From positions 1-40,358 of IMG/VR virus record IMGVR_UViG_3300020181_000017: a stretch of 40,358 bases of DNA; one strand, given 5' to 3'. Under the pieces are notes generated by a model. That model did no database searches. It was not told the origin of the DNA and saw only the letters and a program-made list of their open reading frames with translations. Below, piece by piece: positions 5,742 to 40,323 of the stretch. How positions within the stretch are numbered: position 1 is the first letter of the stretch; each line of letters begins with the position of its first letter. Source of the stretch: a virus (Duplodnaviria > Caudoviricetes). A program made the position numbers and the translations under genes.

Positions 5742-5829
5742 ACGCTAGAGCGCACGTCGTTCAGGAGTTCTCACCGGACCTAGGGAAGCGACTAGCGACC
5801 CGTGCCGGATGCCGTTTCAGACGGGGAAA

Positions 5830-6108: not shown

Positions 6109-6114
6109 AGACCC

Positions 6115-6804: not shown

Positions 6805-6808
6805 AGGT

Positions 6809-8994: not shown

Positions 8995-8996
8995 AG

Positions 8997-10889: not shown

Positions 10890-10934
10890 GTGTAGAAATA
10901 TTATACTAGTAAGGCGTAGCGCTTCCGGTGTGTA

Positions 10935-14792: not shown

Positions 14793-14795
14793 ACT

Positions 14796-16577: not shown

Positions 16578-16578
16578 A

Positions 16579-17718: not shown

Positions 17719-17729
17719 ATTTAATAGTA

Positions 17730-19271: not shown

Positions 19272-19273
19272 AG

Positions 19274-19900: not shown

Positions 19901-19961
19901 AGGTGGTGAGGGTTAAGTACCCTGTCCCGCCCGCCTCCGAGGAGACGAGCAGAGAGGATGC

Positions 19962-21056: not shown

Positions 21057-21094
21057 TATAAGCTAGTTAAGTAGATAACTAGCGAGGCGGAGCT

Positions 21095-21850: not shown

Positions 21851-21947
21851 AGTGGATTGCGTCGCGTCCCTCTGTATCCTGTCTGTTGCTCTCTGATCTA
21901 AGAGCAATGACGGGGCGCGAGGGGTTTGCGAAAATTAGCGCCCGTTA

Positions 21948-22463
21948 TTATGCCTCCCGACCTACAACGACGACTGGCTGCGCTTTCTCGCGGGCCTTAG
22001 CGTCTCGTTCTGCGGTCTTCTTTGCTTCAGCGGCGGCCTGCGCCTCGTCCTTTTCGATACGAGCTGCGGCGTCTGAAAGCTCCTTAGCCTTAGCCTTGCG
22101 AGCCTTAGCCTCGGCCTCTGCGCGTTCGTCACGCTGTTCCGGGGTGAGATCCTGTCCAACACGCTTCAGCGCGAGGGATGCCTCGTTCTTGGCGTCGCTG
22201 ACCTCCTTCTCACGCTCCTGGATCGGACGGTTCTCGTTGATGATGCGCTCCTCGCGGGTGAGCGCGCGTCCTGCGTCCTCAGAGAGCACTTTCACAGGGT
22301 CTTCGCCTTTTAGGTAGATCGCCTTGTCTGTCTCGCTGAGGAACTCCTCACGAGCCTTGAGAAAAGCAAAGTCCTTCGGGGTTAGATCCTTGAAGTGCTT
22401 CTGCTTGATGACGTTGATGGCGTCCTCTACGCGGAGCCCGTCTACTTTTGCATCTGCATCCAT
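21948..22463 (-). CDS. Hypothetical protein (A/E/K-rich coiled coil)
   Basis: 171 aa in the head module. Confidence 0.7.
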   Translation of the reverse strand: MDADAKVDGLRVEDAINVIKQKHFKDLTPKDFAFLKAREEFLSETDKAIYLKGEDPVKVLSEDAGRALTREERIINENRPIQEREKEVSDAKNEASLALKRVGQDLTPEQRDERAEAEAKARKAKAKELSDAAARIEKDEAQAAAEAKKTAERDAKAREKAQPVVVVGREA

Positions 22464-22524
22464 GATTGGGTGTGCATTAGCCTGTTAATGTCGGACAGTT
22501 TAGCGACGTGTCCAGGTCGGGTAG

Positions 22525-22848
22525 CTACGGCAGCGTCTCTATTTGCCGTGCGATCGCGGCCTCGGTCGCAGCCTTCTCCAGGCGTGGACGGTCGAGGAAT
22601 GACCTGGCGGCGCGCAGGAACTCCAATTTCACCTTGAGGAAGGTGTCGTCTTTGGAGCCAAGGCGCTGCTCGGGGAGCTTGCGGATGGTGTCCTCCAGCT
22701 CGGCCTCGAAGAAGGCGGCCACATCCTCGTCAGTCAGCCGGCGGCCGGAAAGGGATGCCTCCCACTCCTTGAAGGTCTTCCGCTCCTCCTCGTTCAGGTC
22801 GAGGAAGCTCTTAACGCCCAGCTTCTTTAGGTACTGGTCGAGGATCAT
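22525..22848 (-). CDS. Hypothetical head-module protein
   Basis: ATGA overlap with the portal gene. Confidence 0.7.
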   Translation of the reverse strand: MILDQYLKKLGVKSFLDLNEEERKTFKEWEASLSGRRLTDEDVAAFFEAELEDTIRKLPEQRLGSKDDTFLKVKLEFLRAARSFLDRPRLEKAATEAAIARQIETLP

Positions 22849-24915: not shown

Positions 24916-24917
24916 AC

Positions 24918-26213
24918 TCAAATAATACCAAGCTCCGGGTACAAGCTCTCCACTCCACCGGTCTGATAGTCGGCTGTCATACGGTTCTGGCGCATCGGCC
25001 TGGCCGGGAGCTCCCACACCGCCAGTGCTGCCGCGAACACCGTGTCGTCGTGCAGGCCATCCGGCACTTTGATCTTCAGCTTCCCGTTCTCCGAGAGCTC
25101 GTACTGGAAATAGGAGAGCTCAGCCTTGAAGACCGGATCGTTCAGGAACCGCACGCGGTCGGTCTGGAGCACCATTGAGAGGTTGGTGAGAGCGTCGGTC
25201 CTGGTCCCCTCTGTGAACTTGTAGGGCTCCAGCATCACGCCCCGGCTCCTGAGATCCTCCACGATCGGGTCTCCCACGCCCGTTGCGTCGATAAAGCCCC
25301 TCGGCTTGCCGTAGCGCAGATAGACGGCCTCAATGCGGGCCTTCTGGAGGTTCCAGTCGATCTGGTTGAAGCGCTCCTTGTACACCTCCTCAAAGGTGTT
25401 CAGGTCGATGACAGAGATGGTGGTGAAGTCCTGGTACTTCGCTAGGTCCACGCCCATTTGGTAGAAGTGGGCTGGGTTTGGGGCCTGCTCGTAGAGCACA
25501 CACGCATCCTCGATGCGCTTGAAGAAGGATGTGGCGCTCTCAATGAACTTGCAGAAGTACTCCTGATCGATCATCGCCTCGGGCATTCCCTCAGCGCGCT
25601 CGCGATCGATGTCCTCTGCGGTTAGAACCCCCGTGTCATCCACGGTGAGCACCTGGGTGAACCACTCGGGGTTGCCCTTGGCGAGCTCCAGCATCTTGAA
25701 GGCGTGGTTCTGACCGCGCGGCGTGAAATTGAAGATCGCCCAGCCGCCATTGATCGTGAGGATCGGGCGTATGAAGTTCCACACCTCCGGCTTGTTGACG
25801 GAGTACTCGGACATGACGATGCCGACCGGGTTCGTACCCACGCCAGACTTCTCGAAGTTGTCCGCACCTATGAGCTGGATGATGGAGCCGTTGACCAGTT
25901 CGGCCTTGAGCTCGGTGTCGTTGGGCTTCTTCTTGAGAAGCTCGGCCGGGATGTGGTCGAGCATCCTGAAGCCGTCGTTGTCGATGTTCTCCCAGATAAC
26001 CTTCTTGGCCTGGGAGTACTCCGGCAGGAAATAGAAGTACGTACCTACACGCTCGCAGGCTTTCTTTATCATGTAGTTGAAGCACACCTTGTCCTTACCG
26101 GACCGGCGATGCCACACGATGACAGCGCGCTTTATGCCGCTATCAAGCGCTCTCAGTAGGGGTAGCTGGTAGCTCCTCGGTTGAAATCGATGGGGTATTT
26201 GTATTGTCGGCAT
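24918..26213 (-). CDS. terL: Terminase large subunit
   Basis: Walker A WHRRSGKD, Walker B IVMSE, coupling motif FTPRG, nuclease motifs GVDLA..D, IDATGVG and HDD. Confidence 0.95.
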   Translation of the reverse strand: MPTIQIPHRFQPRSYQLPLLRALDSGIKRAVIVWHRRSGKDKVCFNYMIKKACERVGTYFYFLPEYSQAKKVIWENIDNDGFRMLDHIPAELLKKKPNDTELKAELVNGSIIQLIGADNFEKSGVGTNPVGIVMSEYSVNKPEVWNFIRPILTINGGWAIFNFTPRGQNHAFKMLELAKGNPEWFTQVLTVDDTGVLTAEDIDRERAEGMPEAMIDQEYFCKFIESATSFFKRIEDACVLYEQAPNPAHFYQMGVDLAKYQDFTTISVIDLNTFEEVYKERFNQIDWNLQKARIEAVYLRYGKPRGFIDATGVGDPIVEDLRSRGVMLEPYKFTEGTRTDALTNLSMVLQTDRVRFLNDPVFKAELSYFQYELSENGKLKIKVPDGLHDDTVFAAALAVWELPARPMRQNRMTADYQTGGVESLYPELGII

Positions 26214-26508
26214 AAGAGACGACGGCGAAAGTGAGAGGCTTGCCGTCTGTAGTCACGTCCACGTTGGACTTCGCACCGCCCTCGGCCATTTCCCAGATGA
26301 CCTTCTTATCGATGCCTTCGAGGAACTTCTGACGCTGCTCCTCGTCCATCGAGGCGAGCATCTCCTTTGCGTACTCCTTGAGGCTCTTGCCTGGTGGTCG
26401 GCCGGATGGGTTGCCCGACTGCCCCGGCTTGAACTGCCAGGGCTTCAGATGCTCCGTTGAACTGTTCCTGGCCTGATCTCCAGTCCCCTCCTCTAGATTA
26501 GCTGTCAT
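26143..26508 (-). CDS. Terminase small subunit-like protein (DUF5681-type N-terminus)
   Basis: WQFKPGQSGNPSGRP and VDVTTDGKPL; immediately upstream of TerL (71-nt overlap). Confidence 0.75.
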   Translation of the reverse strand: MTANLEEGTGDQARNSSTEHLKPWQFKPGQSGNPSGRPPGKSLKEYAKEMLASMDEEQRQKFLEGIDKKVIWEMAEGGAKSNVDVTTDGKPLTFAVVSYADNTNTPSISTEELPATPTESA

Positions 26509-27727: not shown

Positions 27728-27729
27728 AG

Positions 27730-28375: not shown

Positions 28376-29095
28376 CTATGAGACGACCTCGAACTGAGCG
28401 TCGATGACCTGGTGCAACGTCTGCGTCAGGTGGGGCGCTTCGGCCACCTTCCCGCGCAGGGCGTACGTGACGGCGTTGAAGGCCCGCCAGGCAGTCGGAT
28501 CTCCCCAGTCGAAGGGCGGACGCTCGAAAGCGGCCATGACGTCAGGGATGCGCTGAAGGTTGATCGCGCCCTTCCGATAGAGCTCGATGACCAGGTGGTC
28601 GAACTCGTCGAGCTGGAGCGGCCGGTTGCGATACGCCTCGAACTGGTTGGCCTGGGCAAGGCGCTTCTGCTGCAAGGGCTGCACGATGTCCCCGATGATC
28701 GCCGGCAGCTCGCGGCGGGCGCGGAGGGTATGCTTCCGCTTCACCACGGTGTCGGCACAGAACGCCAGGTTCGAGCACACGAAGACACGGCTCCCGAAGG
28801 ACAGGCCGATGGGGAAGCTCCGGTCGTGACTGTTACGCAATCCAACCTGATCGCAGTAGTCCCCATACTCCGACTTCAGAGATAGGACACCGAAGTAGCG
28901 ATCGCCGTTCTTGTCGATGGCGTGGTGCTCTTCCACCACCTCGTGCTCGTGGTAGCGAAGCGCAAACTTGACCATATCAACGAAGTCAAAATGTGGGATG
29001 GGATGGTGGGTGGCCGTCGCGTCTGGTGTTTGCACCATTCGCAGTTGGTCCAGCGTGACAAGTTCCCCGCCGCTGTGCAGGTTCATGCTTTCCAT
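28376..29095 (-). CDS. DUF932/DUF945-family protein
   Basis: LRNSHD, RVFVCSNL, RKHT and TAWRAFNAVT motifs; SD AAGGAG. Confidence 0.85.
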   Translation of the reverse strand: MESMNLHSGGELVTLDQLRMVQTPDATATHHPIPHFDFVDMVKFALRYHEHEVVEEHHAIDKNGDRYFGVLSLKSEYGDYCDQVGLRNSHDRSFPIGLSFGSRVFVCSNLAFCADTVVKRKHTLRARRELPAIIGDIVQPLQQKRLAQANQFEAYRNRPLQLDEFDHLVIELYRKGAINLQRIPDVMAAFERPPFDWGDPTAWRAFNAVTYALRGKVAEAPHLTQTLHQVIDAQFEVVS

Positions 29096-29134
29096 TGCAG
29101 GCTCCTTTCAAAGAACACTGCAAGGAATTGTACC

Positions 29135-29503
29135 TTACGCTAGGAGCTCAGGGTTATCGTAGGTCTTAGCGCGAGGTTTTCCGGTCTTGAACTCGCTCCA
29201 TGCGGCGCGTCGTTCCTTAGACCACTTCGGCCGCTTCGCACCCCTCGAGTGAAGGGCTGTGTGCTCGCCATTCGTAGCAACCGCGAGGTTCGACAGGCGA
29301 TTGTCGGTCTTATCTTCATTCAGGTGGTGGACGATTTTCTTGGGGTCAGTCAGCAGTCCCGCATCCCACGCAATCATCCGGTGCTCTCGTACGTACCCGT
29401 TCTTCTTAGCCAATGGGTGCGACGGCTCGAATACCTCGTAGTAGCCGTGGACGCTGAGGATACGCTTAACGCCCTTTTTGTTCCGGCTACCCTTCGTTTT
29501 CAT
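29135..29503 (-). CDS. HNH homing endonuclease
   Basis: GYVREHR..VHHLNEDKTDNRLSNL..EHTALH. Confidence 0.9.
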   Translation of the reverse strand: MKTKGSRNKKGVKRILSVHGYYEVFEPSHPLAKKNGYVREHRMIAWDAGLLTDPKKIVHHLNEDKTDNRLSNLAVATNGEHTALHSRGAKRPKWSKERRAAWSEFKTGKPRAKTYDNPELLA

Positions 29504-29864
29504 AGATATTTCCGGTTACGACTACATCGCTAGCAGTCCCCTTGTTGAGATGGCGTGTACCGCCGAGCCAGAAGCCACTATTCTCCTCGCTCCAGCGCAC
29601 CACATGGTCTACGAAGAAGTCGCCGTATGGCTCCCTAACCGTATCTCCTTCGTAGATTTCGCGGCCGTTCTTATCGAGGAGGCCGGTGAATTGCATGACG
29701 TGGAAGCGACCGGGCTGGAAGGTCAATGCATCCCAGTTCTTGATGAAGACCATCCCTTTGATGGGTGGGCAGTACACGAATTTCCCGGTGTGCTCCCCAT
29801 CGATGTGCATCTCGTACATTGCTTGCCGCTCGTCATCCCACGCCCGAAACTTAATCGCTCTCAT
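29487..29864 (-). CDS. YopX-family protein
   Basis: IKFRAWD, MQFTGLLDKNGREIYEGD and VTGNIYEN motifs. Confidence 0.92.
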   Translation of the reverse strand: MRAIKFRAWDDERQAMYEMHIDGEHTGKFVYCPPIKGMVFIKNWDALTFQPGRFHVMQFTGLLDKNGREIYEGDTVREPYGDFFVDHVVRWSEENSGFWLGGTRHLNKGTASDVVVTGNIYENEG

Positions 29865-29949
29865 AGCTAGTTTGATAAGCAAGCCAAAACCCTGGACGCT
29901 TTGCGAGTATCCAGGGTTCTAGCCGCAAAGCTTTTAATCGCACCTAGGT

Positions 29950-29986
29950 AGTATACCAAAAAAACCCCCGCTGTCCTGGCGGGGGC
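29950..29986 (-). promoter_or_regulatory. Terminator of the CHC2 gene abutting the extended -10 promoter for yopX
   Basis: Minus strand CCCCGC-cagaca-like loop-GCGGGG hairpin plus T-run, then TGGTATACT. Confidence 0.55.
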
Positions 29987-29992
29987 TGTGCA

Positions 29993-30658
29993 TTACGCAC
30001 GCTTCTTGAAAGGTACAACGCTCGACTTGAGCTGCGGCGGTAGGTGGATGTCACCCTCAACCGCTACGAAGGAGACTTCTCCGTCTTCTCCGGTGACGCG
30101 AATGACGATCTTTCCGCGATGTACGCCACGATTAGCGTACCCAATTCCTGCGGCTCTCAGCTTCTCTGGATCGCCGCCGATTTGGGTGAGCAGCTCGTGC
30201 TCATAATCTAATCCTTCGGCGTACTTATCCGCGTCGAATTGGTGGGGAGGAGACGATGGTCTGCCCCCTCCCCGAGGCTGACGAGAAAGTGATCTCTCTC
30301 GCCCGCTCTCTGGCACTTGTGAGGCACGAGTACGGTCACTAGGTACTGTGTCTCTGGTACTGTGTGTACCGGTACTGATACCGGCGCGCTCAGCGAGCTC
30401 TAAGGCCGCATCACGCATTGTTGGTAGGTCGAGGACGTGTTTGGCAAAGCCGATTACGTCGCCGCCTGTGTCGGCCGAGTGGCAGAAGAAACCTTTGTCG
30501 GCTGTGACGACGAGTGAACGTCCGTCCTTGGTGCCGCAGGCGGGACAATCGCCACGCCATTGCTTTCCTGCGAACTTGAGCCGCAAACCGAGCAACTCGA
30601 TTGCCTCGGCAAAGGGTACTTCCCGCTTCACCAAGGCGAAGTCGATAAACTTCGACAT
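29993..30658 (-). CDS. CHC2 (DnaG-type) zinc-finger protein without TOPRIM domain
   Basis: CPACG..FFCHS..GGDVIGF; SD GGAGG; no primase catalytic motifs seen. Confidence 0.8.
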   Translation of the reverse strand: MSKFIDFALVKREVPFAEAIELLGLRLKFAGKQWRGDCPACGTKDGRSLVVTADKGFFCHSADTGGDVIGFAKHVLDLPTMRDAALELAERAGISTGTHSTRDTVPSDRTRASQVPESGRERSLSRQPRGGGRPSSPPHQFDADKYAEGLDYEHELLTQIGGDPEKLRAAGIGYANRGVHRGKIVIRVTGEDGEVSFVAVEGDIHLPPQLKSSVVPFKKRA

Positions 30659-30788
30659 AGCAACCTCCACGGTGCATGAGCCTTCCTCCTAGGAACACCT
30701 GCACGTAGTCTACCACTCGCTGTCCCCACCTCTTCGGCTAGGGGTGCGTATCCATGGTTTGATTAGGGAGGAACCAAGGAGGTCCATC

Positions 30789-30965
30789 ATGGCCGGTAAA
30801 CGACCTGACTATCATGTCTTCGTGTCCCGCAAAGGACCGGACAAGACCTACTATTCTCGTATAGGTGCAGCGTGGAATGTCGCGAGCGACGGCATCTCCA
30901 TCAAGCTCGAAGCGCTCCCGCTGGACGGCGAGCTCGTGCTGTTTCCACCGAAGGACGACGAGTAA
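30789..30965 (+). CDS. Small DUF736-like putative ssDNA-binding protein
   Basis: RPDYHV..RIGAAW..GISIKL..LVLFPP; SD AAGGAGG; terminator follows. Confidence 0.65.
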   Translation: MAGKRPDYHVFVSRKGPDKTYYSRIGAAWNVASDGISIKLEALPLDGELVLFPPKDDE

Positions 30966-30972
30966 TTCACAC

Positions 30973-30996
30973 GACCCCCGGCGAAAGCTGGGGGTC
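30973..30996 (+). terminator. Hairpin terminator
   Basis: GACCCCCGGC-GAAA-GCTGGGGGTC. Confidence 0.55.
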
Positions 30997-31080
30997 TGCT
31001 ATGATAGAGAGGCCGTGAGAAATCGACCGCTCGTGGCACGTAACATCGCCGGAACCGCCTCGTAGGGGCGGTTCTTGCGT

Positions 31081-32019
31081 TTAGGCGATGATGCTCTTCG
31101 GGCCGTTCACCGTCTGCCAGTCGGTGAAGAGCTCCTCCATGGGCTCCTTCGGGAGCTTCCACTTTTTCGTACTGAACTGCGGGAGAACTTTGAAAAAGAA
31201 CCTCTCGGCGTGCTTCTTCCCCTTGAGGTAGCGAAGCATGATGTCCGCGTCCGACTGTTTGGTGCAGGCCCACATTACCGAGAGGCTCGGAATACCCCAC
31301 TGCTGGCGGTAGAGGCGACGCTCAAGCAGCTCTAGCTGGTGATCGAGCTTCTGCTTGTTGTTGTTTCCCTTGGCCCGCGAGAAGCCCACGGTGCGGGTGT
31401 CTTCACGCACCCAGAAGCGGAACGTGCCGTCGCTCTTGCGCTCGAAGCTCAAGAGGCGGTCAGGCTCGTAGTGGCCGTCGCTCACCTTCACGAGGAGCGG
31501 GTTGTCAGCCTCCTTTGTCGCCTCGGGGCAGTTGGGATGCGCGAACAGGTACTCCTGGTCGTGGAAGACGAGGCCGTGGTCGGGCGCGAGCTGCTCGAAT
31601 GAAAGGTCGATGCACGCCCCCATGCAGCGGTGCCGATCGTGGTCGCGCCGGGGAACGGAGATGGCGATCTCAGCCACCTCGATGCCCTTGTCGGTGAGGT
31701 CGTAGACGGCCTGGCGACCGAGCTCCCCTTCTGGGTTCAGCTCGTCAGGACGCCACACAAGCGTCTCGCCGTCGTACTTCTCGTGGAAGAGGTCGGTAAG
31801 CTGGCGCAGGACAGTCTGCTTGTATCCTGGCTGTCCGCCGAAGAAGGGACGCACAAGGAGGCCCGATGGTGCTGGGCCGTGCCGGAGTGCCTGGAGCACC
31901 CGGATCTTCCTGTCCGTGAGGACATAGCGCTTGTTGGTGGACTGAGGCTCGTTCCGGAAGCGCCGGCCGTGCTCGCTAGCGTCAACCTTCACGGGCTTAG
32001 TGCGGTATTTCGGTCTCAT
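31081..32019 (-). CDS. Replication-relaxation (Replic_Relax-like) protein, putative relaxase
   Basis: N-terminal wHTH (LTDRKIRVL..VYDLTDKG), then HDRH, EPD and VRED (PD-(D/E)xK-like) motifs; directly downstream of a coupling-protein gene. Confidence 0.65.
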   Translation of the reverse strand: MRPKYRTKPVKVDASEHGRRFRNEPQSTNKRYVLTDRKIRVLQALRHGPAPSGLLVRPFFGGQPGYKQTVLRQLTDLFHEKYDGETLVWRPDELNPEGELGRQAVYDLTDKGIEVAEIAISVPRRDHDRHRCMGACIDLSFEQLAPDHGLVFHDQEYLFAHPNCPEATKEADNPLLVKVSDGHYEPDRLLSFERKSDGTFRFWVREDTRTVGFSRAKGNNNKQKLDHQLELLERRLYRQQWGIPSLSVMWACTKQSDADIMLRYLKGKKHAERFFFKVLPQFSTKKWKLPKEPMEELFTDWQTVNGPKSIIA

Positions 32020-32105
32020 AGATCGAGAGGTTAGCGCCGGGATTTTAGGTGTAACCGTTCGCCATGGGCAGGATGTGCACAGTGCTACGCGGTGGCGCTA
32101 TATGA

Positions 32106-34085
32106 TTACTCGTCTATTTTACCCCACTTCACCCAATCACCGTCCTCTTCGGGTGTTGATACCTCAGCAGCCTGCACGAATGCGGCCCGTGGTGGCTCGG
32201 GATAGCTGGCCGGGATGCCCACCTTTGCGCGGTTCTTCGCGAGCAGTTCCTCGTATCTCGTATAGGTGAGCCGTGGCGCATGTTCGAGCGGAGATGGGCG
32301 TGTGGGGATCGCTACAGCGTGTGGGGTGACGTCCTGGATGTAGGCTGCCCAAGTGTAGCGAGGCTGGCCCATGATGAACTCCGGCGTTGTCCGCATGTTC
32401 GGGGCGACTTGGCGAGCGTCCGCGACCGAGATCCTCGAAGCGAAGCGGATGCCGGGGTTCGTGAGGAGCGACGCTTTGAGTGCCTGAGAGGTGGTCTCTT
32501 CGAGCTGCCGGTGAGCGAGGATCACACCGCAGTTGTACTTGCGCGCCTGGTTCAGGAACTCGTTGACCGACGTGTCGAAGTAGTCGGAGCACTCGTCGAT
32601 GTAGATGTACGCCGGGTGCCGCGAAGCGCCGGGGTCAGCGCGTTGCAGAATGGTTTGCAGGATGAGGCTGATGAAGAGCTTTCCGAACACTGGAGAGCCG
32701 GTAGCCAGGTGGTCGCGCGCCGTGTCCACGAGAATGACGTAGCCGTTGTCCAGCGCGTGCTTGAGATCGAGCTTCGTCTCAGGAGCACTGAGGAGGCGTC
32801 GGACGGCGGGGTTAAGCAGCACCCCTCGTAAGCGGTAAGCTATCTCCTTTCGGGTCTTCGTGAACTCCGAGCCCTTCTGGAACAGGTCCTCCTCGAAGAA
32901 CTCGCGGGTGAAATCCGGGAGGGTATCCACCACGTCCTTGTATTTCAGCGGGTCCTGCAGGAAGCGGAAAAGATCTAGCACCGTGGCGTTCTGATCCCGC
33001 GCCCGGGGGAAGGCGAGCAGTGCCTCAGCAATGTGCTCAAAGAGGATGCCTTGCTTGGACGTGAGGTCGGCGGTGCCCCCAGCAAGCGCGGAGATCAAAA
33101 AGTTGAACGTCTGAACGATGTAGGCGCGCGCCCTCTCTCTGGCCGTTTCGTTTGCTTCAGACTTCAGAGCAAACGGGTTCAAGGCCGGCGCGATAGGGTC
33201 CTGCGGGTCGATGATGATGAGGCGATCTTCAATGCCGAGATCCGCTCGTTGAAGCGTTCGTACCAAGTCGCCGGTCGGCTCGATCACCACGACGGAGGGC
33301 TTAGCCGGGTCCTTGATGTCGTTGATGATGAGGTTGGCTAGGAGGGTACTCTTCCCTGATCCGGTGTTCCCGATTACGTGCATGTGGTTCATGCGATCAA
33401 GGGTCGTGAACTTGAGTGGTACCGGCGTTCTAAACACGTCAGCGAACGGTGTGCCCGTTAGGTACGTCGCCACGAGCTCGTCTGGTGGTAGACCGCTCTT
33501 GCTTGCTAGTTTGAGTGGCTTCTTGCTGTCAGAGGATGTGCGACCGGAGGCAGCTTGGATGTTGGCCCACATTTGATCTGTGAGGCCCTTGAAGATGCCG
33601 CGATCTTCGAACTTCGGAGCGCAGAGCGTCGCGAAGATGCGGTCGATTAGTAGGCCCGGCTCATCCAGGGTGTAGACAAGCGGGATGGTGAAGGGCGACG
33701 GGCTCTCTGCCTGGGGTAGATCCTTGCCGATGGAGTAGAGGGCTAGGGATAGACCCTCAAAGAGTAGTTCCTCGAAGGCTTCGCGGTTCTTGAGGTAGTG
33801 CTGCTTTTGAAAGAGAAGCGCCCGGTACTCCGTCAGCTCCCGGAGGTTCATCCGGTCGAAGTCTGGCGGCGGCGTTTCCCACAGGTACGCTTCCTCAATC
33901 ATGAGGCTGGAGATCACGTTCGCGAACGGACGGAAGAGCTCGGTGGGTAGCTTGTAGATGAAGTCCTTGGCTATGCGGATGCCAATGTTCTTTCCTACCT
34001 CCGCAAGGCTCGCGTCGTGCGCCCACACCCACTCGTACAATTGGAGCGTATCGCGTAGGTCGCGTTCGCGCCCCGTCTGAGCCAT
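32106..34085 (-). CDS. Type IV coupling protein-like ATPase (VirD4/TrwB/TraD family)
   Basis: HMHVIGNTGSGKS (Walker A), LNPF, YIYIDE (Walker B), QARKYN and ILAHRQ motifs. Confidence 0.88.
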   Translation of the reverse strand: MAQTGRERDLRDTLQLYEWVWAHDASLAEVGKNIGIRIAKDFIYKLPTELFRPFANVISSLMIEEAYLWETPPPDFDRMNLRELTEYRALLFQKQHYLKNREAFEELLFEGLSLALYSIGKDLPQAESPSPFTIPLVYTLDEPGLLIDRIFATLCAPKFEDRGIFKGLTDQMWANIQAASGRTSSDSKKPLKLASKSGLPPDELVATYLTGTPFADVFRTPVPLKFTTLDRMNHMHVIGNTGSGKSTLLANLIINDIKDPAKPSVVVIEPTGDLVRTLQRADLGIEDRLIIIDPQDPIAPALNPFALKSEANETARERARAYIVQTFNFLISALAGGTADLTSKQGILFEHIAEALLAFPRARDQNATVLDLFRFLQDPLKYKDVVDTLPDFTREFFEEDLFQKGSEFTKTRKEIAYRLRGVLLNPAVRRLLSAPETKLDLKHALDNGYVILVDTARDHLATGSPVFGKLFISLILQTILQRADPGASRHPAYIYIDECSDYFDTSVNEFLNQARKYNCGVILAHRQLEETTSQALKASLLTNPGIRFASRISVADARQVAPNMRTTPEFIMGQPRYTWAAYIQDVTPHAVAIPTRPSPLEHAPRLTYTRYEELLAKNRAKVGIPASYPEPPRAAFVQAAEVSTPEEDGDWVKWGKIDE

Positions 34086-34714
34086 CAGCGCACTTGGAAG
34101 CTGGAGAGCATGAACAAGACAGACGTGAACAGCAAGAAAGCCAAGAGTAGCAGTATGCCGATCCCGTTGAAGCCATCGTCCGCCTTCTTTTGCGCCGCAG
34201 CTTCTGGCGCAACCCTCTGCACGAAGAGGGAGGCTTCCTCCGGCGCAGCTAAGCTAGGTTGGGGAGCAACCTGGACAGGTGGCAATGGACGGGTGGGCAT
34301 GGGCTCGGCGCGGGCGACCACCTCCCCCGTCTCCATGTCGATCACCTGCTCCTGACCCTGGAAATAGTTCGCTTCCTTGATGCGGGAGTGGAGCAGCTTC
34401 GCGTTCGCTCTGATCTCGTTCTCGACCTCGATCAGCTCCTCGAACCGGCCGCTCTCGATGACGTGGCCGCGCTCAAGGCTCTCGGCGGTGATGTTGATCA
34501 CGAAGCCCTTCAGCTCTGGAAACACTCCCGTGACGACGGACCCGAAGAGGTTGGAGCCCTTGGTGACGTCCTTCAGCCAGATGGAGGTCGCGACCTGGCA
34601 GATGGGGAAATACCCCACCTTGCGGAGGTTCTGCTTCTCCTCGTCGGAGTAGTCTGCGCGGACCTCAAGCCTGAATTTTTTCCCGACCTCAGAGCGCTTT
34701 ATTTTGAGCTGCAT
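34085..34714 (-). CDS. Hypothetical protein with C-terminal TM anchor
   Basis: Start MQLKIK with SD GAGGGG; Pro-rich linker, then IGILLLLAFLLFTSVLFML; TGATG-coupled to the ATPase. Confidence 0.7.
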   Translation of the reverse strand: MQLKIKRSEVGKKFRLEVRADYSDEEKQNLRKVGYFPICQVATSIWLKDVTKGSNLFGSVVTGVFPELKGFVINITAESLERGHVIESGRFEELIEVENEIRANAKLLHSRIKEANYFQGQEQVIDMETGEVVARAEPMPTRPLPPVQVAPQPSLAAPEEASLFVQRVAPEAAAQKKADDGFNGIGILLLLAFLLFTSVLFMLSSFQVR

Positions 34715-34757
34715 CGGTTTTTCCCCCTCGGCAGGGGAACGCCGCTCTCTGGAACTG

Positions 34758-35522
34758 TCAAGCGCTGCGCATGTACGCGTCTCGGTCTGCGAGGAAGCCC
34801 TCGGTGCCGCGTGCAAACTTCGAGGTGTAGAGGGCCAGGAGGTCTGCATCGTCAGAGTTGCAGCGGCTGCCCACTTTCGTAGGGAAGGACAGGAGGCGGT
34901 GCTTCCAGTCAGGCAGCTCCTCGAACGCGCTGACCCCGGCGATGAGCCGGTTCTGTCGCATCAGACGCGCATGACCCTGGTGGGCGTAGAAGCCGAAGTC
35001 CGGGATCACGACCGGCCCCTCGTATTGAGAGATCAGGAAGTTCGCGAGCACGAAGCTGTCAAAGTCGCCTAGTACCGATCGGTCGAGTTTGGCGAGTATG
35101 ATGCCTTTGAAAGAGATGTTGGTGGGTCGTGTGAGCACGTCCTTCAGTACGGGTGACAGGAGTAGTGTCTGTATCGTCTGGTAGGCGTGCTCGGTTTCCC
35201 TGCTATCACGAATGAGCGTCTCCAGGTCAGTTGGCTCGTTGAGGAGGGATCGTAGTATCTGAAAGCGTGAGCGCTGTTTGGTGAGTGTATTCTCCCCTTC
35301 CGGGAACACAGCATCGAGAACGGAGACAAACTCCCGTGCCTTTCGGTAGTCGAGGTCAGCCAGCGGATTGAACGAGTGTTTTGAAACGTCGAACCGAACC
35401 ACCTGATAGTGGTCGGGAAAGGTGAGCCGATCGGAAAACTCGCCGTCGTCGATCAGCAGAAACCGCTCGGAAAAGTATCGTGAGATCGGCGCTTTGTCGC
35501 TGCCGAGAATGAGTACGTTCAT
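34758..35522 (-). CDS. Miniaturised, degenerate VirD4/TrwB-like paralog
   Basis: Colinear remnants NVLILGSDK, FLLIDDG, SFNPL, IILAKLDRSVLG and VVIPDF match the neighbouring ATPase, but Walker A and B are broken. Confidence 0.65.
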   Translation of the reverse strand: MNVLILGSDKAPISRYFSERFLLIDDGEFSDRLTFPDHYQVVRFDVSKHSFNPLADLDYRKAREFVSVLDAVFPEGENTLTKQRSRFQILRSLLNEPTDLETLIRDSRETEHAYQTIQTLLLSPVLKDVLTRPTNISFKGIILAKLDRSVLGDFDSFVLANFLISQYEGPVVIPDFGFYAHQGHARLMRQNRLIAGVSAFEELPDWKHRLLSFPTKVGSRCNSDDADLLALYTSKFARGTEGFLADRDAYMRSA

Positions 35523-35525
35523 TGT

Positions 35526-35883
35526 GTGGGTCGGTGGAGTAGAGCCTCGCTTCGGGAAGGGGTGCTCCCGCCGACCACGAAACGAAGAACTCCCACACCA
35601 TTGTAAACGGTAGAGGTCCCACTTCCCTTCCCCGTGGGGGGAGAGAGCAAGGGGAAGGGGGTCCCCGCAATGGGGGATAGGGAAGGAGTAGAAGGGGGCA
35701 AACGGTACAGTGACCGCACCGTTTCGTCTGTGGTCCCGTAAGGGCCACGACCCATGGGGTTTTTCGTAAGAATAAAGCACATGGGTCGTGGCCGTGAGGC
35801 CATGCGAAACGGTGCGGAATCAGTGTGTTGTCGGGGTTATCCCCGGCATACAGTATGGTAAGGCGTATGGTCGGCTCGTATGC
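35526..35883 (+). other. Highly structured non-coding region (candidate oriT / single-strand origin or RNA)
   Basis: Six or more hairpins, including a four-way junction at 35714-35817 with GTAA/GTAA/GTGA loops, and a G-rich tract. Confidence 0.55.
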
Positions 35884-35884
35884 G

Positions 35885-35893
35885 TGGTACACT
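35885..35893 (+). promoter_or_regulatory. Extended -10 promoter upstream of the candidate ncRNA
   Basis: TGGTACACT, the same form as TGGTATAGT, TGGTATACT and TGTTACACT elsewhere in the genome. Confidence 0.5.
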
Positions 35894-35899
35894 GCCGCT

Positions 35900-36330
35900 A
35901 GGAAGTGGAGGGTTGTTGTGGCGCGGGTTAGCGGTTGTCTCTCTTAGCCCTATCAGCCGAAGCAGATAAGACGGACGGGCACTGGACCGAGTTTCTGCAA
36001 GAGATGAGGAGCGTATACGCGAGGGTTAGACGCCCTCCCCGTGCCCCACTAGCCCTTCACCGACAGTTCGAGTGCAGATGGGGGAATGAGATACCGGAGC
36101 CGTACTAGCGCGCGGCATGGGACCCAGCTTGGGTCGCCGGACGAGGATGCTTTCCCCTCGTCGTTCCCCACCTGCGCTGGAACGGTTCGAGGATAGACGG
36201 GGGAGTGTAATGCAGTGCGAGGCTGCGCGCGCAGCAACGTCTGCTAAAGCGGTAGAGGTTAGCGACCTCGGGGCACTCCACCGCCTGACCTTGAACATGA
36301 AAAAGCCCCGCGATGGTCTGCGGGGCTTTG
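35900..36330 (+). ncRNA. Candidate ~430-nt structured ncRNA of unknown class
   Basis: Promoter, end-closing stem, nested long-range helices with G-U pairs on the plus strand, terminal hairpin, no credible ORF. Confidence 0.6.
36301..36330. terminator. Bidirectional intrinsic terminator
   Basis: AAAGCCCCGC-8nt-GCGGGGCTTT, between the ncRNA candidate and the convergent H-NS-like gene. Confidence 0.7.
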
Positions 36331-36350
36331 TCGTACTCGTACGGTAGGTG

Positions 36351-36779
36351 TCAGGCCGCGATGTAAAGGCCATCCTTCTGAGCGATGGTGTTGGCCTTCT
36401 TGAGGGCTGCGAGCGCGTTAGAGACGCTCTGTTCCGCCGACTTGTTGCCCTTAGCATCGAGCTTGGCGAGTACGTCTGCGCGGCTGATGCCGTCGCCGCT
36501 CTCCTTCACAATCGAGAGCACCTGGTCACGGATACCAGTGCGCCGGGTACCGCCGCCAAGCGTGCTACCTCCGGAAAGGGTGCTGCCGCCGGAAAGCGTC
36601 ATGGCGCTTCCGGACTGCCGATTGCCCTCCACGAGCCGATAGGTGAAACCGAGAACGCGTAGCTCCTCGATCGCGGCGTTAGCGCGGTTGAGAGCCTCCT
36701 GCTTAGCCTGCTCGCGCAGTTGGTTCTTCTGCTCTTCGAGCTCGCGGATCTGGGCGTCGATCTCTTCGAGAGTAGGCAT
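36351..36779 (-). CDS. H-NS-like oligomerisation domain fused to a winged helix
   Basis: MPTLEEIDAQIRELEEQKNQLREQAKQEAL N-terminus; C-terminal IRDQVL..GISRADVL..VSNAL..LY; SD AGGAG. Confidence 0.65.
   Translation of the reverse strand: MPTLEEIDAQIRELEEQKNQLREQAKQEALNRANAAIEELRVLGFTYRLVEGNRQSGSAMTLSGGSTLSGGSTLGGGTRRTGIRDQVLSIVKESGDGISRADVLAKLDAKGNKSAEQSVSNALAALKKANTIAQKDGLYIAA
36546..36599 (-). repeat. 3 x 18-bp coding tandem repeat (TLSGGS TLSGGS TLGGGT)
   Basis: Seen directly in the linker of the H-NS-like gene. Confidence 0.85.
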
Positions 36780-36828
36780 GGTACGTCTCCTGCTGTGGTG
36801 CTCCTCTAGCAGTATCCCATGTAAAAGA

Positions 36829-36855
36829 AAGCCCCCGGCGATGAACCGGGGGCTT
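36829..36855 (-). terminator. Terminator after alpA
   Basis: AAGCCCCCGG-7nt-CCGGGGGCTT followed by TCTTTT on the minus strand. Confidence 0.65.
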
Positions 36856-36865
36856 AGTGGCTCCG

Positions 36866-37060
36866 CTAGGAGCCGGGGTTGGCATCTGTCGAGAACTTGG
36901 ATTGCTGCCATTCCTCAATGTCAGAGGCTCGCCACGCTACCCTTCCGGTGCCCAGACGTACCCGCTTAGGGAATTGTCCAGCGGCCTCCAGGCGCGCTAT
37001 GTGTGCTCTGCAATAAGGTACGTAGCTCTTCAGCTCTTTCGCAGTGATTAGCCGTTCCAT
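36866..37060 (-). CDS. alpA: AlpA-family regulator / excisionase
   Basis: RLITAKEL..IARLEAAGQFPKRVRLG..RVAWRASDIEEW; directly downstream of the integrase; SD GGAG. Confidence 0.88.
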   Translation of the reverse strand: MERLITAKELKSYVPYCRAHIARLEAAGQFPKRVRLGTGRVAWRASDIEEWQQSKFSTDANPGS

Positions 37061-37100
37061 CACGGTACTCCAATGAGGAGCATCGCGATGCATCCGGCGA

Positions 37101-38204
37101 TTACCGGACGAGCAACCATACCAGGGCTTCTTCGATCTTGCGAAGCGCTTCTCGCTTTTGTGGGAGGTAGCTCCACTGATCGTAGATCGCGTCGAGGTCT
37201 TTGGGTGCGTGGTTGAGAAGGTGCTCCGCGATGTCTCGGGGAACCCCTACCCTCGCTGCAAGGCTGCGGAAGGTGCGCCGTAGATCGTGAGGCGTCCAAC
37301 CGCTGGTGCCGGATCGTTTCTGTACGGTGGCGACCACCTGGGACAACCCACGCGGGGTGATGTGCCCCTCCCCCCACCTGCCGGGGAAGAAGTGCTGGTG
37401 GTTGTGCTTCGGTAGGATGTGCTCCGCCAGCGGCCCAAAGGGGATTGAGTGGGTTCTCCCGTTCTTCGTGTGGTCGCCAGGGATCGTGAGCACCCCCTGG
37501 AAGGCCCAGGATTGCTCCAGGACGCACGTTTCCTGCCTGCGGGTACCGAAGAGCAGCATCGCCCGCACAGCGGCCTCTGAAGGGCCTGTACAGGCGTGCC
37601 AGACGGCGACGACCTCCTCGTCAGTGAGGATGCGGGTCTTCTTCCTGTCCTTGCCGGGTGCCTCGTAGCCCGTGAGGGGACTGTAGCGGAGGTAGCGGCG
37701 GGGAGCGCGGACGCACCAGTTGAAGAAGGTCCGCAAATAGCGGAAGGCGTGGAGCTGTTCGCTCGGTCGGTCCTTCAGCTTGTCGAGGCAGCGCTTGATG
37801 TCGGCGTCCTCGATGTCCGCGAGCTGCATCGGCTCAAGGTGCTTGAAGTGCAGCTTGAGGGCGCGGGAGACCTGGTACTTCGTCCCCTCGCTCTTGTCGG
37901 CGTAGTGGGCGTCGAGGAACTCGTCTCGGGCCTCGCGGAAGCACTTGTGTTGTGACTTGTGCTGCCACTTAGGTTCTTCGGCTAAGAGCTTCTTGGCCTC
38001 AAGGCGCGCGGCGCTGAGAGGAAGGTCGGGGTATTGGCCGATCGTCACGAGCTCACGCGAGCGGCCTCGCATACAGACCCACGTCTTCGTGTGCTTCCCA
38101 ACGCGGATGCCAAAGCCCCGCGTGGTCTTGCACATGTAACGGATGGGAGGGGTACCGCCTTTGAGGGCGCGCACCGCCACGTCAGTGAGATGCACGACCG
38201 GCAT
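37101..38204 (-). CDS. int: Tyrosine integrase with N-terminal arm-binding domain
   Basis: Catalytic R (GTRRQE), K (TKNG), HDLRR, LNH and Y; N-terminus LTDVAVRAL..GFGIRV; start MPVVH with SD GGAG. Confidence 0.93.
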   Translation of the reverse strand: MPVVHLTDVAVRALKGGTPPIRYMCKTTRGFGIRVGKHTKTWVCMRGRSRELVTIGQYPDLPLSAARLEAKKLLAEEPKWQHKSQHKCFREARDEFLDAHYADKSEGTKYQVSRALKLHFKHLEPMQLADIEDADIKRCLDKLKDRPSEQLHAFRYLRTFFNWCVRAPRRYLRYSPLTGYEAPGKDRKKTRILTDEEVVAVWHACTGPSEAAVRAMLLFGTRRQETCVLEQSWAFQGVLTIPGDHTKNGRTHSIPFGPLAEHILPKHNHQHFFPGRWGEGHITPRGLSQVVATVQKRSGTSGWTPHDLRRTFRSLAARVGVPRDIAEHLLNHAPKDLDAIYDQWSYLPQKREALRKIEEALVWLLVR

Positions 38205-38206
38205 CG

Positions 38207-38460
38207 TTTGTCTCCTTTTTGTCTCGCAATCCCAAGGAACAGGGACTGGACACAGTGTAACGCCATGAGCAGGTCGCTCTGGCGAAACGGTCAATGGAAA
38301 CAGATGGATGCCGGTCAGTATGAGCGCGTATGTGCGCTATGAGGAGGTATCACTTTTTTGCTTGGAAGGCTGCTGCACTACCATTGTGCTATACCCGCCA
38401 AGTCAGTGACTTAGCCAAACTCCGTCGTTCCATTTGTCTCGTTTTTGTCTCCCAAACCCA
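38207..38460. other. attP region: tRNA-derived core flanked by arm-type repeats
   Basis: 28-bp direct repeats (25/28 identical) at 38207-38234 and 38433-38460, each holding two TTTGTCTC copies at 11-bp spacing, flank the tRNA fragment. Confidence 0.8.
38360..38398 (-). pseudogene. 5' half of tRNA-Gly(TCC), the attP core
   Basis: GCGGGTATAGCACAATGGTAGTGCAGCAGCCTTCCAAGC: acceptor 5' strand, D arm and anticodon loop CTTCCAA, then an abrupt break; no T arm. Confidence 0.88.
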
Positions 38461-38498: not shown

Positions 38499-39101
38499 TT
38501 AGATCGCAATGTCCTCGGGGAGCTGCTCGTAGATCTCCCGGAACGCCTCGCGCGGATCAGCGCCAAGGGCACGGACGTACGCCACGAACTCCACCACATC
38601 GAGCCGGCGGAGCTTGTTCTCCACCCGCGACACGAACTGCTGGCCCTTGCCGAGGCGCTTCGCCACGTCAGCCTGATGGAGGCCGCGTTTCGCGCGGAGA
38701 CCAGCTACCAGGGACCGTACGAGATCGTAGTGGTCGGCCGGTGACTTCTGCTGGGCCTGGAACGCTGCTGGGATCGCAAGCTCAAATGGATGTGGCTCAT
38801 AGCGCGAGAAGAGTATCGAGCGGTTTGAAGACACGTGCGCCGGCAGCGTCGCACGCCTTCGGTCGTTGCACGGCCAGCAGACAATCTGGATGTTCGAGAT
38901 GGTGTGTGCACCACCCTTTGTAAGCGGTGTGATGTGGTCTGGCGACGGAAGTTCCGGTAACGGCTCTTGGCAAAGTGCACAGATCCATCCCTGTGCTTCT
39001 TGCAACTTCGAAAGTGATGTGTCGGTGATTGTACCGTCGTCAGTCAGCGCTATCTGTTCCGCCCGGCTACGCTTCAGGTGATTGGCATATCCTGCGTACA
39101 T
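38499..39101 (-). CDS. HNH endonuclease fused to an XRE-family HTH
   Basis: CALC..DHITPLTKGG.HTISNIQIVCWPCN, then LRAKRGLHQADVAKRLGK..FVSRVE; leaderless start after TGTTACACT. Confidence 0.8.
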   Translation of the reverse strand: MYAGYANHLKRSRAEQIALTDDGTITDTSLSKLQEAQGWICALCQEPLPELPSPDHITPLTKGGAHTISNIQIVCWPCNDRRRATLPAHVSSNRSILFSRYEPHPFELAIPAAFQAQQKSPADHYDLVRSLVAGLRAKRGLHQADVAKRLGKGQQFVSRVENKLRRLDVVEFVAYVRALGADPREAFREIYEQLPEDIAI

Positions 39102-39120
39102 AGAAACAGTGTAACATACA

Positions 39121-39378
39121 CTAAATCCGAGTATCACCAGGAACGTCCCTGACGATAGTTCGCAGAAGCTCAACGGGATCAGCACCTAAGGCGCGCGCAT
39201 AGACGCAGAACTCTACTATATCGAGCCGACGTACGCGGTTCTCGACCTTCGACACAAACTGCTGATGCTTACCGAGACGCTTGGCTACGTCAGATTGCAA
39301 GAGCCCGCGCTCTTTCCGCAACTGGATCAAATGCTCAACGGCTGAACTGTACGCGTCGGAGTGCACTGAGGCCGGCAT
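39121..39378 (-). CDS. XRE-family HTH regulator
   Basis: LRKERGLLQSDVAKRLGKHQQFVSKVENRVRRLDIVEF. Confidence 0.9.
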   Translation of the reverse strand: MPASVHSDAYSSAVEHLIQLRKERGLLQSDVAKRLGKHQQFVSKVENRVRRLDIVEFCVYARALGADPVELLRTIVRDVPGDTRI

Positions 39379-39492
39379 AGCGAGGCTTCCGCTTGAAAGC
39401 CAAGCTGAATATGCGCGTGGGAAGCGAACCCGCTTTTGGGGAACCCGATGTTCGGGTACGGTAGCCCTAAGATCATCTCAAAGGGGCTTTTC

Positions 39493-40017
39493 ATGCTTAG
39501 TCGGGCAATCGCGGGTATCGCCGCCGCGCTCTCCATTTCGTCGGCGGCTTCGGCCGCTGACTTCATCGGCTACGTCTCCGTCACAGGCGGGACCGTGGCG
39601 CACTTCGAGGAGCTCGGGGCGCAGTTTCCTGGCGCTATCTGGACGAGCGTGCTGGCCGCTAAGGGCACGTTCCCCGCGCAAGAAGACTGCTTCCCATCCG
39701 GCTTCACTCCGACCGACGCGTGCCGACAGGAAACGGTGGGCGGAGAGTTCCTCGCGGATCGGGGAGCGGAGGATCTGAACCAGCTCTTCAACTCCGGCCT
39801 CGACGACGGACAGAACGGCACGGGGCCGGCTGACTTCTGGATCGCGTACACACTCGATACCGGGGACCGGGTGGTGACGACCTTCCACCGCGTGGACGCC
39901 GACACCTGGACCAGCCCTACGCAAGCCATTCCCGAACCTGCGACCTGGGCGCTCATGATCCTGGGCTTTGGGAGCGTGGGCGCGATGATGCGACGGCGGA
40001 GGCTGGTCCCGGACTAG
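39493..40017 (+). CDS. PEPxxWA-CTERM surface protein (exosortase substrate)
   Basis: Signal peptide plus C-terminal IPEPATWALMILGFGSVGAMMRRRR. Confidence 0.9.
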   Translation: MLSRAIAGIAAALSISSAASAADFIGYVSVTGGTVAHFEELGAQFPGAIWTSVLAAKGTFPAQEDCFPSGFTPTDACRQETVGGEFLADRGAEDLNQLFNSGLDDGQNGTGPADFWIAYTLDTGDRVVTTFHRVDADTWTSPTQAIPEPATWALMILGFGSVGAMMRRRRLVPD

Positions 40018-40030
40018 CTACCGCTCACCT

Positions 40031-40058
40031 GGGGGTCGCTTCGGCGGCCCTCTTTTTT
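40031..40058 (+). terminator. Intrinsic terminator
   Basis: GGGGGTCGC-TTCG-GCGGCCCTC followed by TTTTTT. Confidence 0.8.
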
Positions 40059-40101
40059 GGCTCCGCTTGAGAACGTTTGGAGAACGCCGTAGGGGTAGCG
40101 G

Positions 40102-40323
40102 ATGCCTTCCCGTTTTCCGCCACCCTGGTGGATCGAAGATACCGGGCACGCCTTCGCGGTGAAGGACGCGACCGGCTTCGCCCTCACCTGGTTTCACTAC
40201 GCGACGCACGATGTCGTCGGGACGAACCCGGATCGGATGACAAAGCGGCAGGCGTGGGCGTTTGCGGTGAACTTCATCAAGCTCCCCGCCCTGCTGGTCA
40301 AAGACCGAGCTCCGCCAGCTTAG
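40102..40323 (+). CDS. Small hypothetical protein (RFPPPW motif)
   Basis: 73 aa; resembles, from memory, small proteins of alphaproteobacterial islands; overlaps the ninG 3' end across the circular junction. Confidence 0.65.
   Translation: MPSRFPPPWWIEDTGHAFAVKDATGFALTWFHYATHDVVGTNPDRMTKRQAWAFAVNFIKLPALLVKDRAPPA

Follow-up and report, generated by a model that had tools for sequence, protein, structure and literature searches.

Temperate phages joined to a putative alphaproteobacterial mobilisation cassette: a recurrent element with divided translation signals and a candidate origin of transfer

Introduction

Phages and conjugative hitchers usually form separate classes. The IMG/VR virus record IMGVR_UViG_3300020181_000017 (Duplodnaviria; Caudoviricetes), whose 40,358 nucleotides were analysed at full length and are referred to as the window, carries genes of both: a complete virion and lysis set, and a cassette that includes an integrase, an excisionase, a relaxase-like protein and a VirD4/TrwB-like ATPase. 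How did the two come to share one circle, and in which cell is each of them used? A first-pass annotation made from the sequence had proposed an element with two exits, virions and contact-dependent DNA transfer through a borrowed or non-canonical channel. We find that the element is real and recurrent, so that a family of elements joins both classes, and that it is undescribed in the literature that could be searched. Judged at the sequence level, what is new here is a covarying hairpin, a split in translation signals and a degenerate ATPase homologous to a Patescibacteria-type family. Tentatively, with a probability of about 0.42, the element is read as a temperate phage with an alphaproteobacterial integrative and mobilisable element (IME) cassette that has two hosts, the virions likely being made in a host independent of Shine-Dalgarno (SD) signals, probably a member of the Patescibacteria.

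Results

A virion module and a putative mobilisation cassette in one circle

The window is a 40.2-kb circle closed by an exact 124-nt terminal repeat. In a Logan assembly of run X1 it forms a single contig of 40,255 nt (depth 14.5, a single figure being given for each contig) that closes the circle, crosses the boundary between virion genes and cassette without differences (compared over 20359-40358) and has its only break at the 39-nt att core. The exact sequence was found in one public run only, possibly the source, and no RNA sample was listed as holding it; because run X1 is possibly the source sample of the record, the contig is not taken as independent evidence.

Family scans (Pfam, PHROG) of 59 window open reading frames (ORFs) identified the terminase large subunit (TerL, phrog_2), the major capsid protein (MCP), an SU10 adaptor, an internal virion protein, a soluble lytic transglycosylase (SLT) domain and NinG, together with integrase, AlpA, CHC2, DUF932, YopX and HNH families. 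The podovirus-like head, tail and lysis set and the integrase with attP that had been predicted were thus recovered, and TerL, portal, MCP, tail, lysis genes and integrase are those of a temperate tailed phage. The element equally has traits of an IME, namely its own integrase and excisionase, att-bounded integration, no mating-pair genes and, in both lysogens of related elements tested, a candidate helper in trans; the full virion module sets it apart from a phage satellite. As noted at first pass, none of the 59 ORFs gave a VirB-type match. Nor did any match ParA, ParB or Rep, a role in which Replic_Relax could act, and the scans recognised no helicase or polymerase. GC content is 58%, and GC3 is similar and high in virion and cassette genes.

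Recurrence in phages and islands

Searching with an alignment of the cassette ATPase retrieved 7 viral, 73 genome and 80 metagenome loci, including several duplicates and the window itself (L087). A single-protein search of IMG/VR loci gave nothing, and INPHARED phages held no full-length relative of the ATPase, with one partial match at 25%. Twelve elements other than the window (G001-G005, G056, G031, G017, G052, L091, L094 and L128) also have the cassette next to virion genes; two of them, G001 and G002, are not independent samples because their names carry the same dataset identifier. The linkage of the two modules therefore holds beyond the window. The elements measure 38-47 kb, have long open virion ORFs and conserve the gene order DUF932 to TerL; the records of the window, G001 and G004 are circular. 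Their virion modules are podo- or siphovirus-like and mostly unmatched with one another. By tblastn of the window against G001-G005, the phage genes were unmatched except for the endolysin, NinG and YopX, and G003, G017 and G031 have one siphovirus module in common.

The majority of loci are islands; the DNA read shows no virion genes in them, and their cargo consists of genes for metal resistance, defence or recombinases. In the G007 island no virion match was obtained among 12 ORFs scanned from the stretch at 270-290 kb. A phrog_2 TerL lies within 40 kb of the ATPase in 4 of 49 genomes, the TerL genes of G001 and G052 being missed by this model and found by others. In a sample of 300 alphaproteobacterial genomes, six others than the centre contain a full-length relative of the relaxase. 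A tree of 75 ATPase sequences does not separate those of phages from those of islands but intersperses them, which points to repeated gain or loss of virion modules.

Elements entering cells as single-stranded DNA (ssDNA) characteristically carry ArdC-type anti-restriction genes. Such genes, or tblastn homologs of them, lie downstream of the cassette in L082, L094, G001, G004, G007 and G040. G001 also has a phage-borne divergent GroEL gene (L167:4263-5984) between DUF932/ArdC-like genes and the terminase. In Rhizomicrobium-type loci (such as L037, L040-L045 and L055) the relaxase gene is inverted 4-6 kb upstream of the ATPase gene and there is no hairpin; these rearranged islands occur in several copies per genome. 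The cargo of the G007 island (L190-L191), with a QueC-like gene, a serine recombinase and a ParB-like protein, has SD-less starts (0/10).

Integration into alphaproteobacterial tRNA genes

At the att core the assembly shows a common 39-mer of high depth with loose ends. This 39-mer is found exactly at the 5' end of ARAGORN tRNA-Gly(TCC) genes in L001, L003 and L006, and Brevundimonas G007 has two copies with 2 mismatches, 58 kb apart (C3:247343 and 305544), one of which adjoins a cassette integrase gene. The assembly break, the tRNA matches and the paired copies hence identify the 39-mer as attP. The pattern was not found in 121 alphaproteobacterial genomes (1 mismatch) or in 121 genomes of Patescibacteria (candidate phyla radiation, CPR; 3 mismatches). 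In the isolate Parerythrobacter lacustris RS5-5 (G031) a 47-bp repeat at tRNA-Met bounds 38.3 kb, and in a sphingomonad metagenome-assembled genome (MAG; G017) a 46-bp repeat at tRNA-Lys bounds 38.6 kb. Both segments are prophages in alphaproteobacterial chromosomes that contain cassette and virion genes, and thus the cassette integrase serves the whole phage. In both lysogens tested (2/2), VirB4 was found over the family cut-off elsewhere in the genome.

The att site lies in the 5' half of the tRNA gene in the window, as it does in L002, L005 and G007, and at tRNA 3' ends in G031 and G017. A tRNA-Tyr gene stands head to head with the att site in L001, L003 and G007.

Translation signals differ between cassette and virion genes

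SD motifs were scored at operon-internal ATG starts 3-70 nt past the upstream gene (predicted starts, few per genome), because a crude count over all early starts was noisy (0.03-0.33 versus 0.31-0.47). At non-cassette starts the motif was found in 0 of 9 cases in the window and 1 of 73 in nine other elements (0/11 in G031), a total of 1/82. The corresponding values were 17/43 for the alphaproteobacterial host flanks (p 1.5e-8) and 24/61 for other prophage or gene transfer agent (GTA)-like regions of the same genome set (p 9e-10), the latter being 20 undelimited terminase-bearing regions, nearly all away from cassettes, that include host and GTA-like genes. Patescibacteria DNA gave 0/44, and low-GC relatives of the virion module gave 2/71. 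The SD-less starts are thus like those of CPR DNA, as would be expected of a Patescibacteria phage; part of the Parcubacteria lack the anti-SD sequence (PMC9297842). In the phage loci most cassette genes, in contrast, are SD-led: int (7/8), alpA (10/13), the membrane protein (7/8), the small protein (9/11), CHC2 (12/13) and DUF932 (8/9).

The closest relatives of the virion module (22 loci, MCP identity 55-67%) have a GC content of 30-46%, compared with 58% in the window. The cassette ATPase was held by none of five such records searched, two of them complete. In the ESM Atlas, close matches of the portal and of the product of 3394-4119 fall in viral clusters only. Given that SD-less virion genes persist at 49-62% GC, the starts of an SD-independent host appear to have been kept despite GC drift.

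Relaxase-like protein and ATPases of the cassette

The protein likened to Replic_Relax in the first-pass annotation has no direct Pfam match, and the assignment is supported through its relatives: a profile search collected 1,530 of them, and PF13814 (Replic_Relax, best E 1e-16), a family recognised as MOBC (PMC5357655), is matched by 79 of the 100 sequences aligned. Residues H130, D187 and E206 are invariant, and P186, R209 and K224 are conserved in at least 90%. The AlphaFold2 model (pLDDT 95) has a winged helix-turn-helix (wHTH) at residues 30-120 (structure matches of Z 8-9) and a core that matches PaqCI (Z 8.4, rmsd 3.5, 136 aligned) and Bax1 (Z 7.4, rmsd 3.0, 112 aligned), both with middling Z. 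A wHTH with PD-(D/E)xK is the layout of the MOBC relaxase TraX (PMC12857230).

For the 659-aa ATPase the best Pfam match is DUF87 (E 2.5e-7), TrwB_AAD_bind being also over the cut-off (E 2e-5). TrwB is the sole PDB sequence match of its profile (E 7e-4), and NCBIfam TraD and VirB4 matches are far below the cut-off. Walker A and B motifs and the TrwB-family profile are those of a coupling protein, in agreement with the predicted VirD4/TrwB-like identity. The N-terminal anchor of coupling proteins was not found in it (maximum hydropathy 1.35, no transmembrane (TM) segment); the TM segment sits on the gene upstream (hydropathy 2.83), at the C-terminus of the protein that had been put forward as membrane anchor.

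The predicted degenerate ATPase was likewise corroborated. By hhalign it is related to a family of VirD4-like ATPases of ~390 aa (95%, E 3.6e-8, 257 columns), an intact member of which fills the same slot in L064, L070, L075, L082, L083 and L128. This second-type ATPase is represented by 27 rows, some of them duplicates, among alphaproteobacterial-type loci.

A conserved hairpin as candidate oriT

The structured non-coding region seen at first pass was located between alpA and the degenerate ATPase gene as a long hairpin, 107 nt in the window and 107-190 nt across copies. Its pattern gave 25 matches over the ATPase loci compared with 1.2 per shuffled pass. An alignment of 18 copies reveals Watson-Crick covariation, with changes on both sides of 16 of the 29 pairs and G-U in 1 of 522 cells; a DNA cruciform or ssDNA hairpin would suit this better than an RNA. 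A covariance model matched 29 of 173 sources, namely the 18 training copies and 11 others, five of which are near-copies of the training set. All 13 phage loci have the hairpin (L082 weakly, E 0.006). Of the 75 dereplicated loci that extend 4 kb or more to both sides, 17 have CHC2 or the small protein, and the hairpin was present in 11 of these and in 3 of the other 58, so that most islands probably lack it or have another origin. A pattern scan of IMG/VR returned 53 loci, six with the cassette ATPase; the other 47 are taken as chance. The hairpin is a candidate origin of transfer (oriT), a replication origin being the alternative.

No Rfam match was obtained for the hairpin. A Trans44 match over alpA was rejected as an RNA gene, being far below the gathering score. 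The hairpin flanks in alignment A4 (for example L008, L051 and L094) contain two kinds of candidate binding site: repeated GTCC-N4-GGAC palindromes, which the window copy does not evidently have, and, upstream, a CATA...TGTATG hairpin.

Links with Patescibacteria

Copies of the second-type ATPase from three islands are 38-45% identical over their full length to ATPases of Patescibacteria and 25-29% identical to the 659-aa ATPase. In a midpoint-rooted FastTree tree, built without outgroup and with top scorers as the CPR ATPases, 15 CPR sequences nest within the second-type family. Relaxase-like genes occur in 7 of 151 Patescibacteria genomes, and four of the eight CPR matches adjoin a second-type ATPase gene; distant relatives of the 659-aa ATPase are present in 299 of 301. 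A 23.6-kb phage contig in a Patescibacteria MAG has NinG, a DnaD-like protein (46%) and an MCP in common with cassette elements. Patescibacteria have a conserved type IV secretion system (T4SS), mostly without relaxase, and MOBC is the commonest CPR relaxase class, at 58/109 (PMC12102498).

A 3.6-kb contig in a Saccharibacteria MAG (L079) carries alpA and a true cassette ATPase fragment; it may represent misbinning or an element inside a CPR cell.

Other features of the window

Features are collected in Table 1. Neither of the small conserved cassette proteins has a match in Pfam, PHROG or NCBIfam, and their labels 'H-NS-like' (36351-36779) and 'SSB-like' (30789-30965) stay unconfirmed. Three elements whose virion genes are unrelated have the PEP-CTERM protein, Cro/C1 HTH and 73-aa ORF (39436-40017) in common on the far side of att. 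About 650 nt at 690-1360 have no ORF of at least 60 aa and separate two leftward gene groups, and the adjacent small ORFs 1359-1649 and 1653-1898 have a common N-terminal motif (27-nt repeat D13).

Table 1. Annotated features of the window and the basis of each assignment.
Feature	Position	Strand	Basis
Terminal repeat	1..124 (= 40235-40358)		Exact repeat, circular assembly
Lysis region: SLT domain protein (PF01464), holin candidate, endolysin candidate	5217..7560	-	
Peptidase-like endolysin candidate	6115-6804	-	47% homolog in G003 matches peptidase PHROGs
Podovirus head/tail block, SD-less	7563..24542	-	Family scans, start analysis, portal match
SU10 adaptor (PF24175), virion structural protein, internal virion proteins, tail fibre candidates	in 7563..24542	-	
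MCP, phrog_267	19962-21056	-	Within head/tail block
Portal, SU10/P22-like	22845-24542	-	Within head/tail block
Terminase: DUF5681 small-subunit candidate and large subunit	24918..26508	-	Family scans
DUF932, last conserved cassette gene	28376..29095	-	Family scan, homologs
YopX-family and HNH genes within cassette, SD-less passengers	29135..29882	-	Family scans, start analysis
CHC2 zinc-finger protein (primase N-terminal-like)	29993..30658	-	Family scans
Small conserved protein, SD-led	30789..30965	+	Homolog and start analyses
Replic_Relax / MOBC-type protein: winged helix and PD-(D/E)xK	31081..32019	-	Profile, alignment, model
659-aa VirD4/TrwB-like ATPase, Walker A GNTGSGKS, Walker B YIDE, no TM	32106..34085	-	
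Conserved bitopic protein, C-terminal TM segment, candidate membrane anchor	34085..34714	-	Stop overlaps ATPase start
Degenerate ATPase, Walker A eroded	34758..35522	-	hhalign to second-type ATPase family
Long hairpin, invariant core GCCACGACC...GGTCGTGGC, candidate oriT	35713..35819	-	Pattern, covariation
Small conserved protein	36351..36779	-	Homologs in L008, L022, L036, L094
AlpA excisionase/regulator	36866..37060	-	PF05930 E 7e-11
Tyrosine integrase (Arm-DNA-bind_3 and Phage_integrase), SD-led	37101..38204	-	Family scans, start analysis
attP core, 5' 39 nt of tRNA-Gly(TCC)	38360..38398	-	Assembly break, tRNA matches
Beyond att: HNH-HTH, Cro/C1 HTH, PEP-CTERM protein, 73-aa ORF	38499..40323		Homologs flank att in G001, G002

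Discussion

One host or two

A chimera of two host worlds is suggested by the SD split, by the low GC content of the relatives of the virion module and by the Patescibacteria-type ATPase. Nicking, transfer, its direction and a second host are inferred, and the steps proposed are as follows. The integrase and AlpA would excise the circle from an alphaproteobacterial tRNA gene, and the MOBC-type protein would nick it in the hairpin or close by. Anchored by the membrane protein encoded upstream, the VirD4-like ATPase would hand the strand to a T4SS acting in trans, which might be a resident VirB system or the conserved T4SS of an epibiont. Head, tail and lysis genes would then be expressed in an SD-independent cell. 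Return to the alphaproteobacterium might proceed via the virion or by contact, DUF932, ArdC and the small conserved proteins helping establishment. The two exits proposed at the outset gain partial support from the linkage, the candidate oriT and the VirB4 of both lysogens; the part that the chimera calls into question is the single host then assumed.

Several observations weigh against this reading. SD motifs are also wanting in the relaxase gene (0/13) and mostly in the ATPase gene (2/9) of the phage loci; a TA-containing box lies ~13 nt before the relaxase ATG, and several loci have the ATPase start overlapping the stop of the preceding gene, which we read as a probably leaderless and a probably coupled start, respectively. 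By the measure used, ~60% of alphaproteobacterial starts have no SD motif either, and SD-less starts are typical of Bacteroidota too. TATAAT boxes before ATG occur at ~0.8 per 10 kb in the other elements and in CPR, at 0.05 in alphaproteobacteria and at 0 in the window; they are not used as evidence because shuffle-normalised promoter-motif counts did not discriminate. The MCP gave weak partial matches in 2 of 301 CPR and none of 301 alphaproteobacterial genomes, with no close homolog, and the endolysin was found in none of 141 CPR and none of 141 alphaproteobacterial genomes. CPR matches of the cassette ATPase are distant (at most 186 bits) save for L079, and the choice of sequences and rooting qualify the nesting of the CPR ATPases. 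In alignment A1 a tyrosine follows the conserved lysine in two of six rows, and the window has Gln. Finally, since both lysogens have a VirB4 of their own, no second host is needed for transfer.

The strongest alternative, unlikely if taken singly, is an alphaproteobacterial phage that also moves via resident VirB, its SD-less virion genes being a host-jump relic translated as non-SD or leaderless mRNA. The full VirB4 of the lysogens, the GC3 common to virion and cassette genes and the intact prophages in alphaproteobacterial chromosomes agree with it. It has to accommodate the near absence of SD motifs across ten elements despite host-ward GC, when other prophage regions have them, and the same SD-less signature in many unrelated virion modules. 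Taken together, single-host readings are about as likely as the two-host reading.

A more specific two-host form, itself doubtful, is a cross-phylum shuttle, in which the relaxase and coupling ATPases of the prophage would pump it via the T4SS from the alphaproteobacterium into an attached Patescibacteria epibiont, where it would replicate lytically and kill the parasite.

It is improbable that the cassette is instead a replicon like those of pXO1-type plasmids or Bacillus plasmid prophages, with Replic_Relax as initiator, the hairpin as origin, and CHC2 and the small protein in auxiliary roles. Annotations of PF13814 do include plasmid replication besides relaxation (PMC3424549), the Replic_Relax and FtsK of Bacillus phages have been read as plasmid-prophage functions (PMC9658697), the hairpin goes with CHC2 or the small protein, and no helicase or polymerase was recognised. 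However, Replic_Relax is partnered here by an ATPase of VirD4/TrwB type and a membrane protein, the scans revealed no partition gene, the element integrates, and G005 has its own DnaD-like loader and RecET, with homologs in G052.

Passive capture, in which incoming phage DNA of foreign origin would recombine with an IME common in Alphaproteobacteria and then be carried along unexpressed, is likewise improbable. Most loci are indeed islands with cargo other than virion genes, and in the tree their ATPases mingle with those of phages, but the uniform size, long open virion ORFs, three circular records and conserved DUF932-TerL order speak against silent cargo.

Least probable of the functional readings, and very much so, is a HerA/MADS-like defence or superinfection-exclusion pair of ATPase and nuclease. 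It would account for DUF87 as best Pfam match and for a PADLOC match to mad8 (E 4e-16), but HerA matches are short and cover the Walker A region only, the three neighbours of the ATPase scanned gave no PADLOC match, and both genes keep company with int/alpA, a hairpin in cis and the membrane protein gene; the ATPase is also closer to TrwB/VirD4-type than to HerA defence proteins. An assembly chimera, to which occurrence of the exact sequence in one sample might point, is negligible in view of the unbroken contig in a second assembly and the recurrence of the layout in 12 further elements, one of them in the genome of an isolate.

Relation to known systems

Phage satellites of the PICI type (phage-inducible chromosomal islands) have an int-alpA-primase layout. 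The window resembles them in its int-alpA start, CHC2 primase-like domain and tRNA att site, and differs in having its own full virion and a relaxase/coupling pair.

Among mobilisable elements, the MOBC and VirD4 IMEs (streptococcal IME_Class_8, PMC5357655) likewise combine an integrase, a PF13814 relaxase and a VirD4-like ATPase without mating-pair genes and have a candidate inverted-repeat oriT, and the MOBC prototypes CloDF13 MobC and pAD1 TraX (PMC12857230) have the same wHTH and restriction-like relaxase. Unlike these IMEs, the window has a whole virion and lysis set, a tyrosine integrase with AlpA, a TM-less ATPase with a separate membrane protein, and a second Patescibacteria-type ATPase or its relic. 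The Bacillus phages Novomoskovsk and Bolokhovo (PMC9658697), with Replic_Relax, FtsK/SpoIIIE and TrbC/VirB2, are also tailed phages in which Replic_Relax stands beside a P-loop DNA motor. They were read as a plasmid-prophage relic, whereas in the window the ATPase is VirD4-like and the cassette holds the integrase, exists without virions too and differs from the virion genes in its translation signal. Phi1207.3 of Streptococcus pyogenes, compared by titles among the references of PMC10763512, is a prophage once proposed to conjugate and in a later title a temperate bacteriophage. The T4SS and coupling-protein genes of Patescibacteria are chromosomal (PMC12102498), whereas their second-type relatives described above lie in alphaproteobacterial mobile elements. 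No such phage-IME hybrid is described in the available part of a review of mobilisable elements (PMC11389934).

Implications

The cultured lysogen Parerythrobacter lacustris RS5-5 makes the family testable. If true, the two-host form would be categorically new. It would supply a DNA substrate for the unexplained T4SS of Patescibacteria, a route of gene flow between epibiont and host, a possible means of defence against epibionts, and a sequence handle by which CPR bacteria could be paired with hosts. Under the two-host reading, prophage-based host assignment may name the wrong lytic host. Should the shuttle in particular be true, the element would be the counterpart in bacteria of an integrated virophage that defends its host; islands without virion genes would serve gene exchange along that route, and the hosts of uncultured CPR would be readable from att sites.

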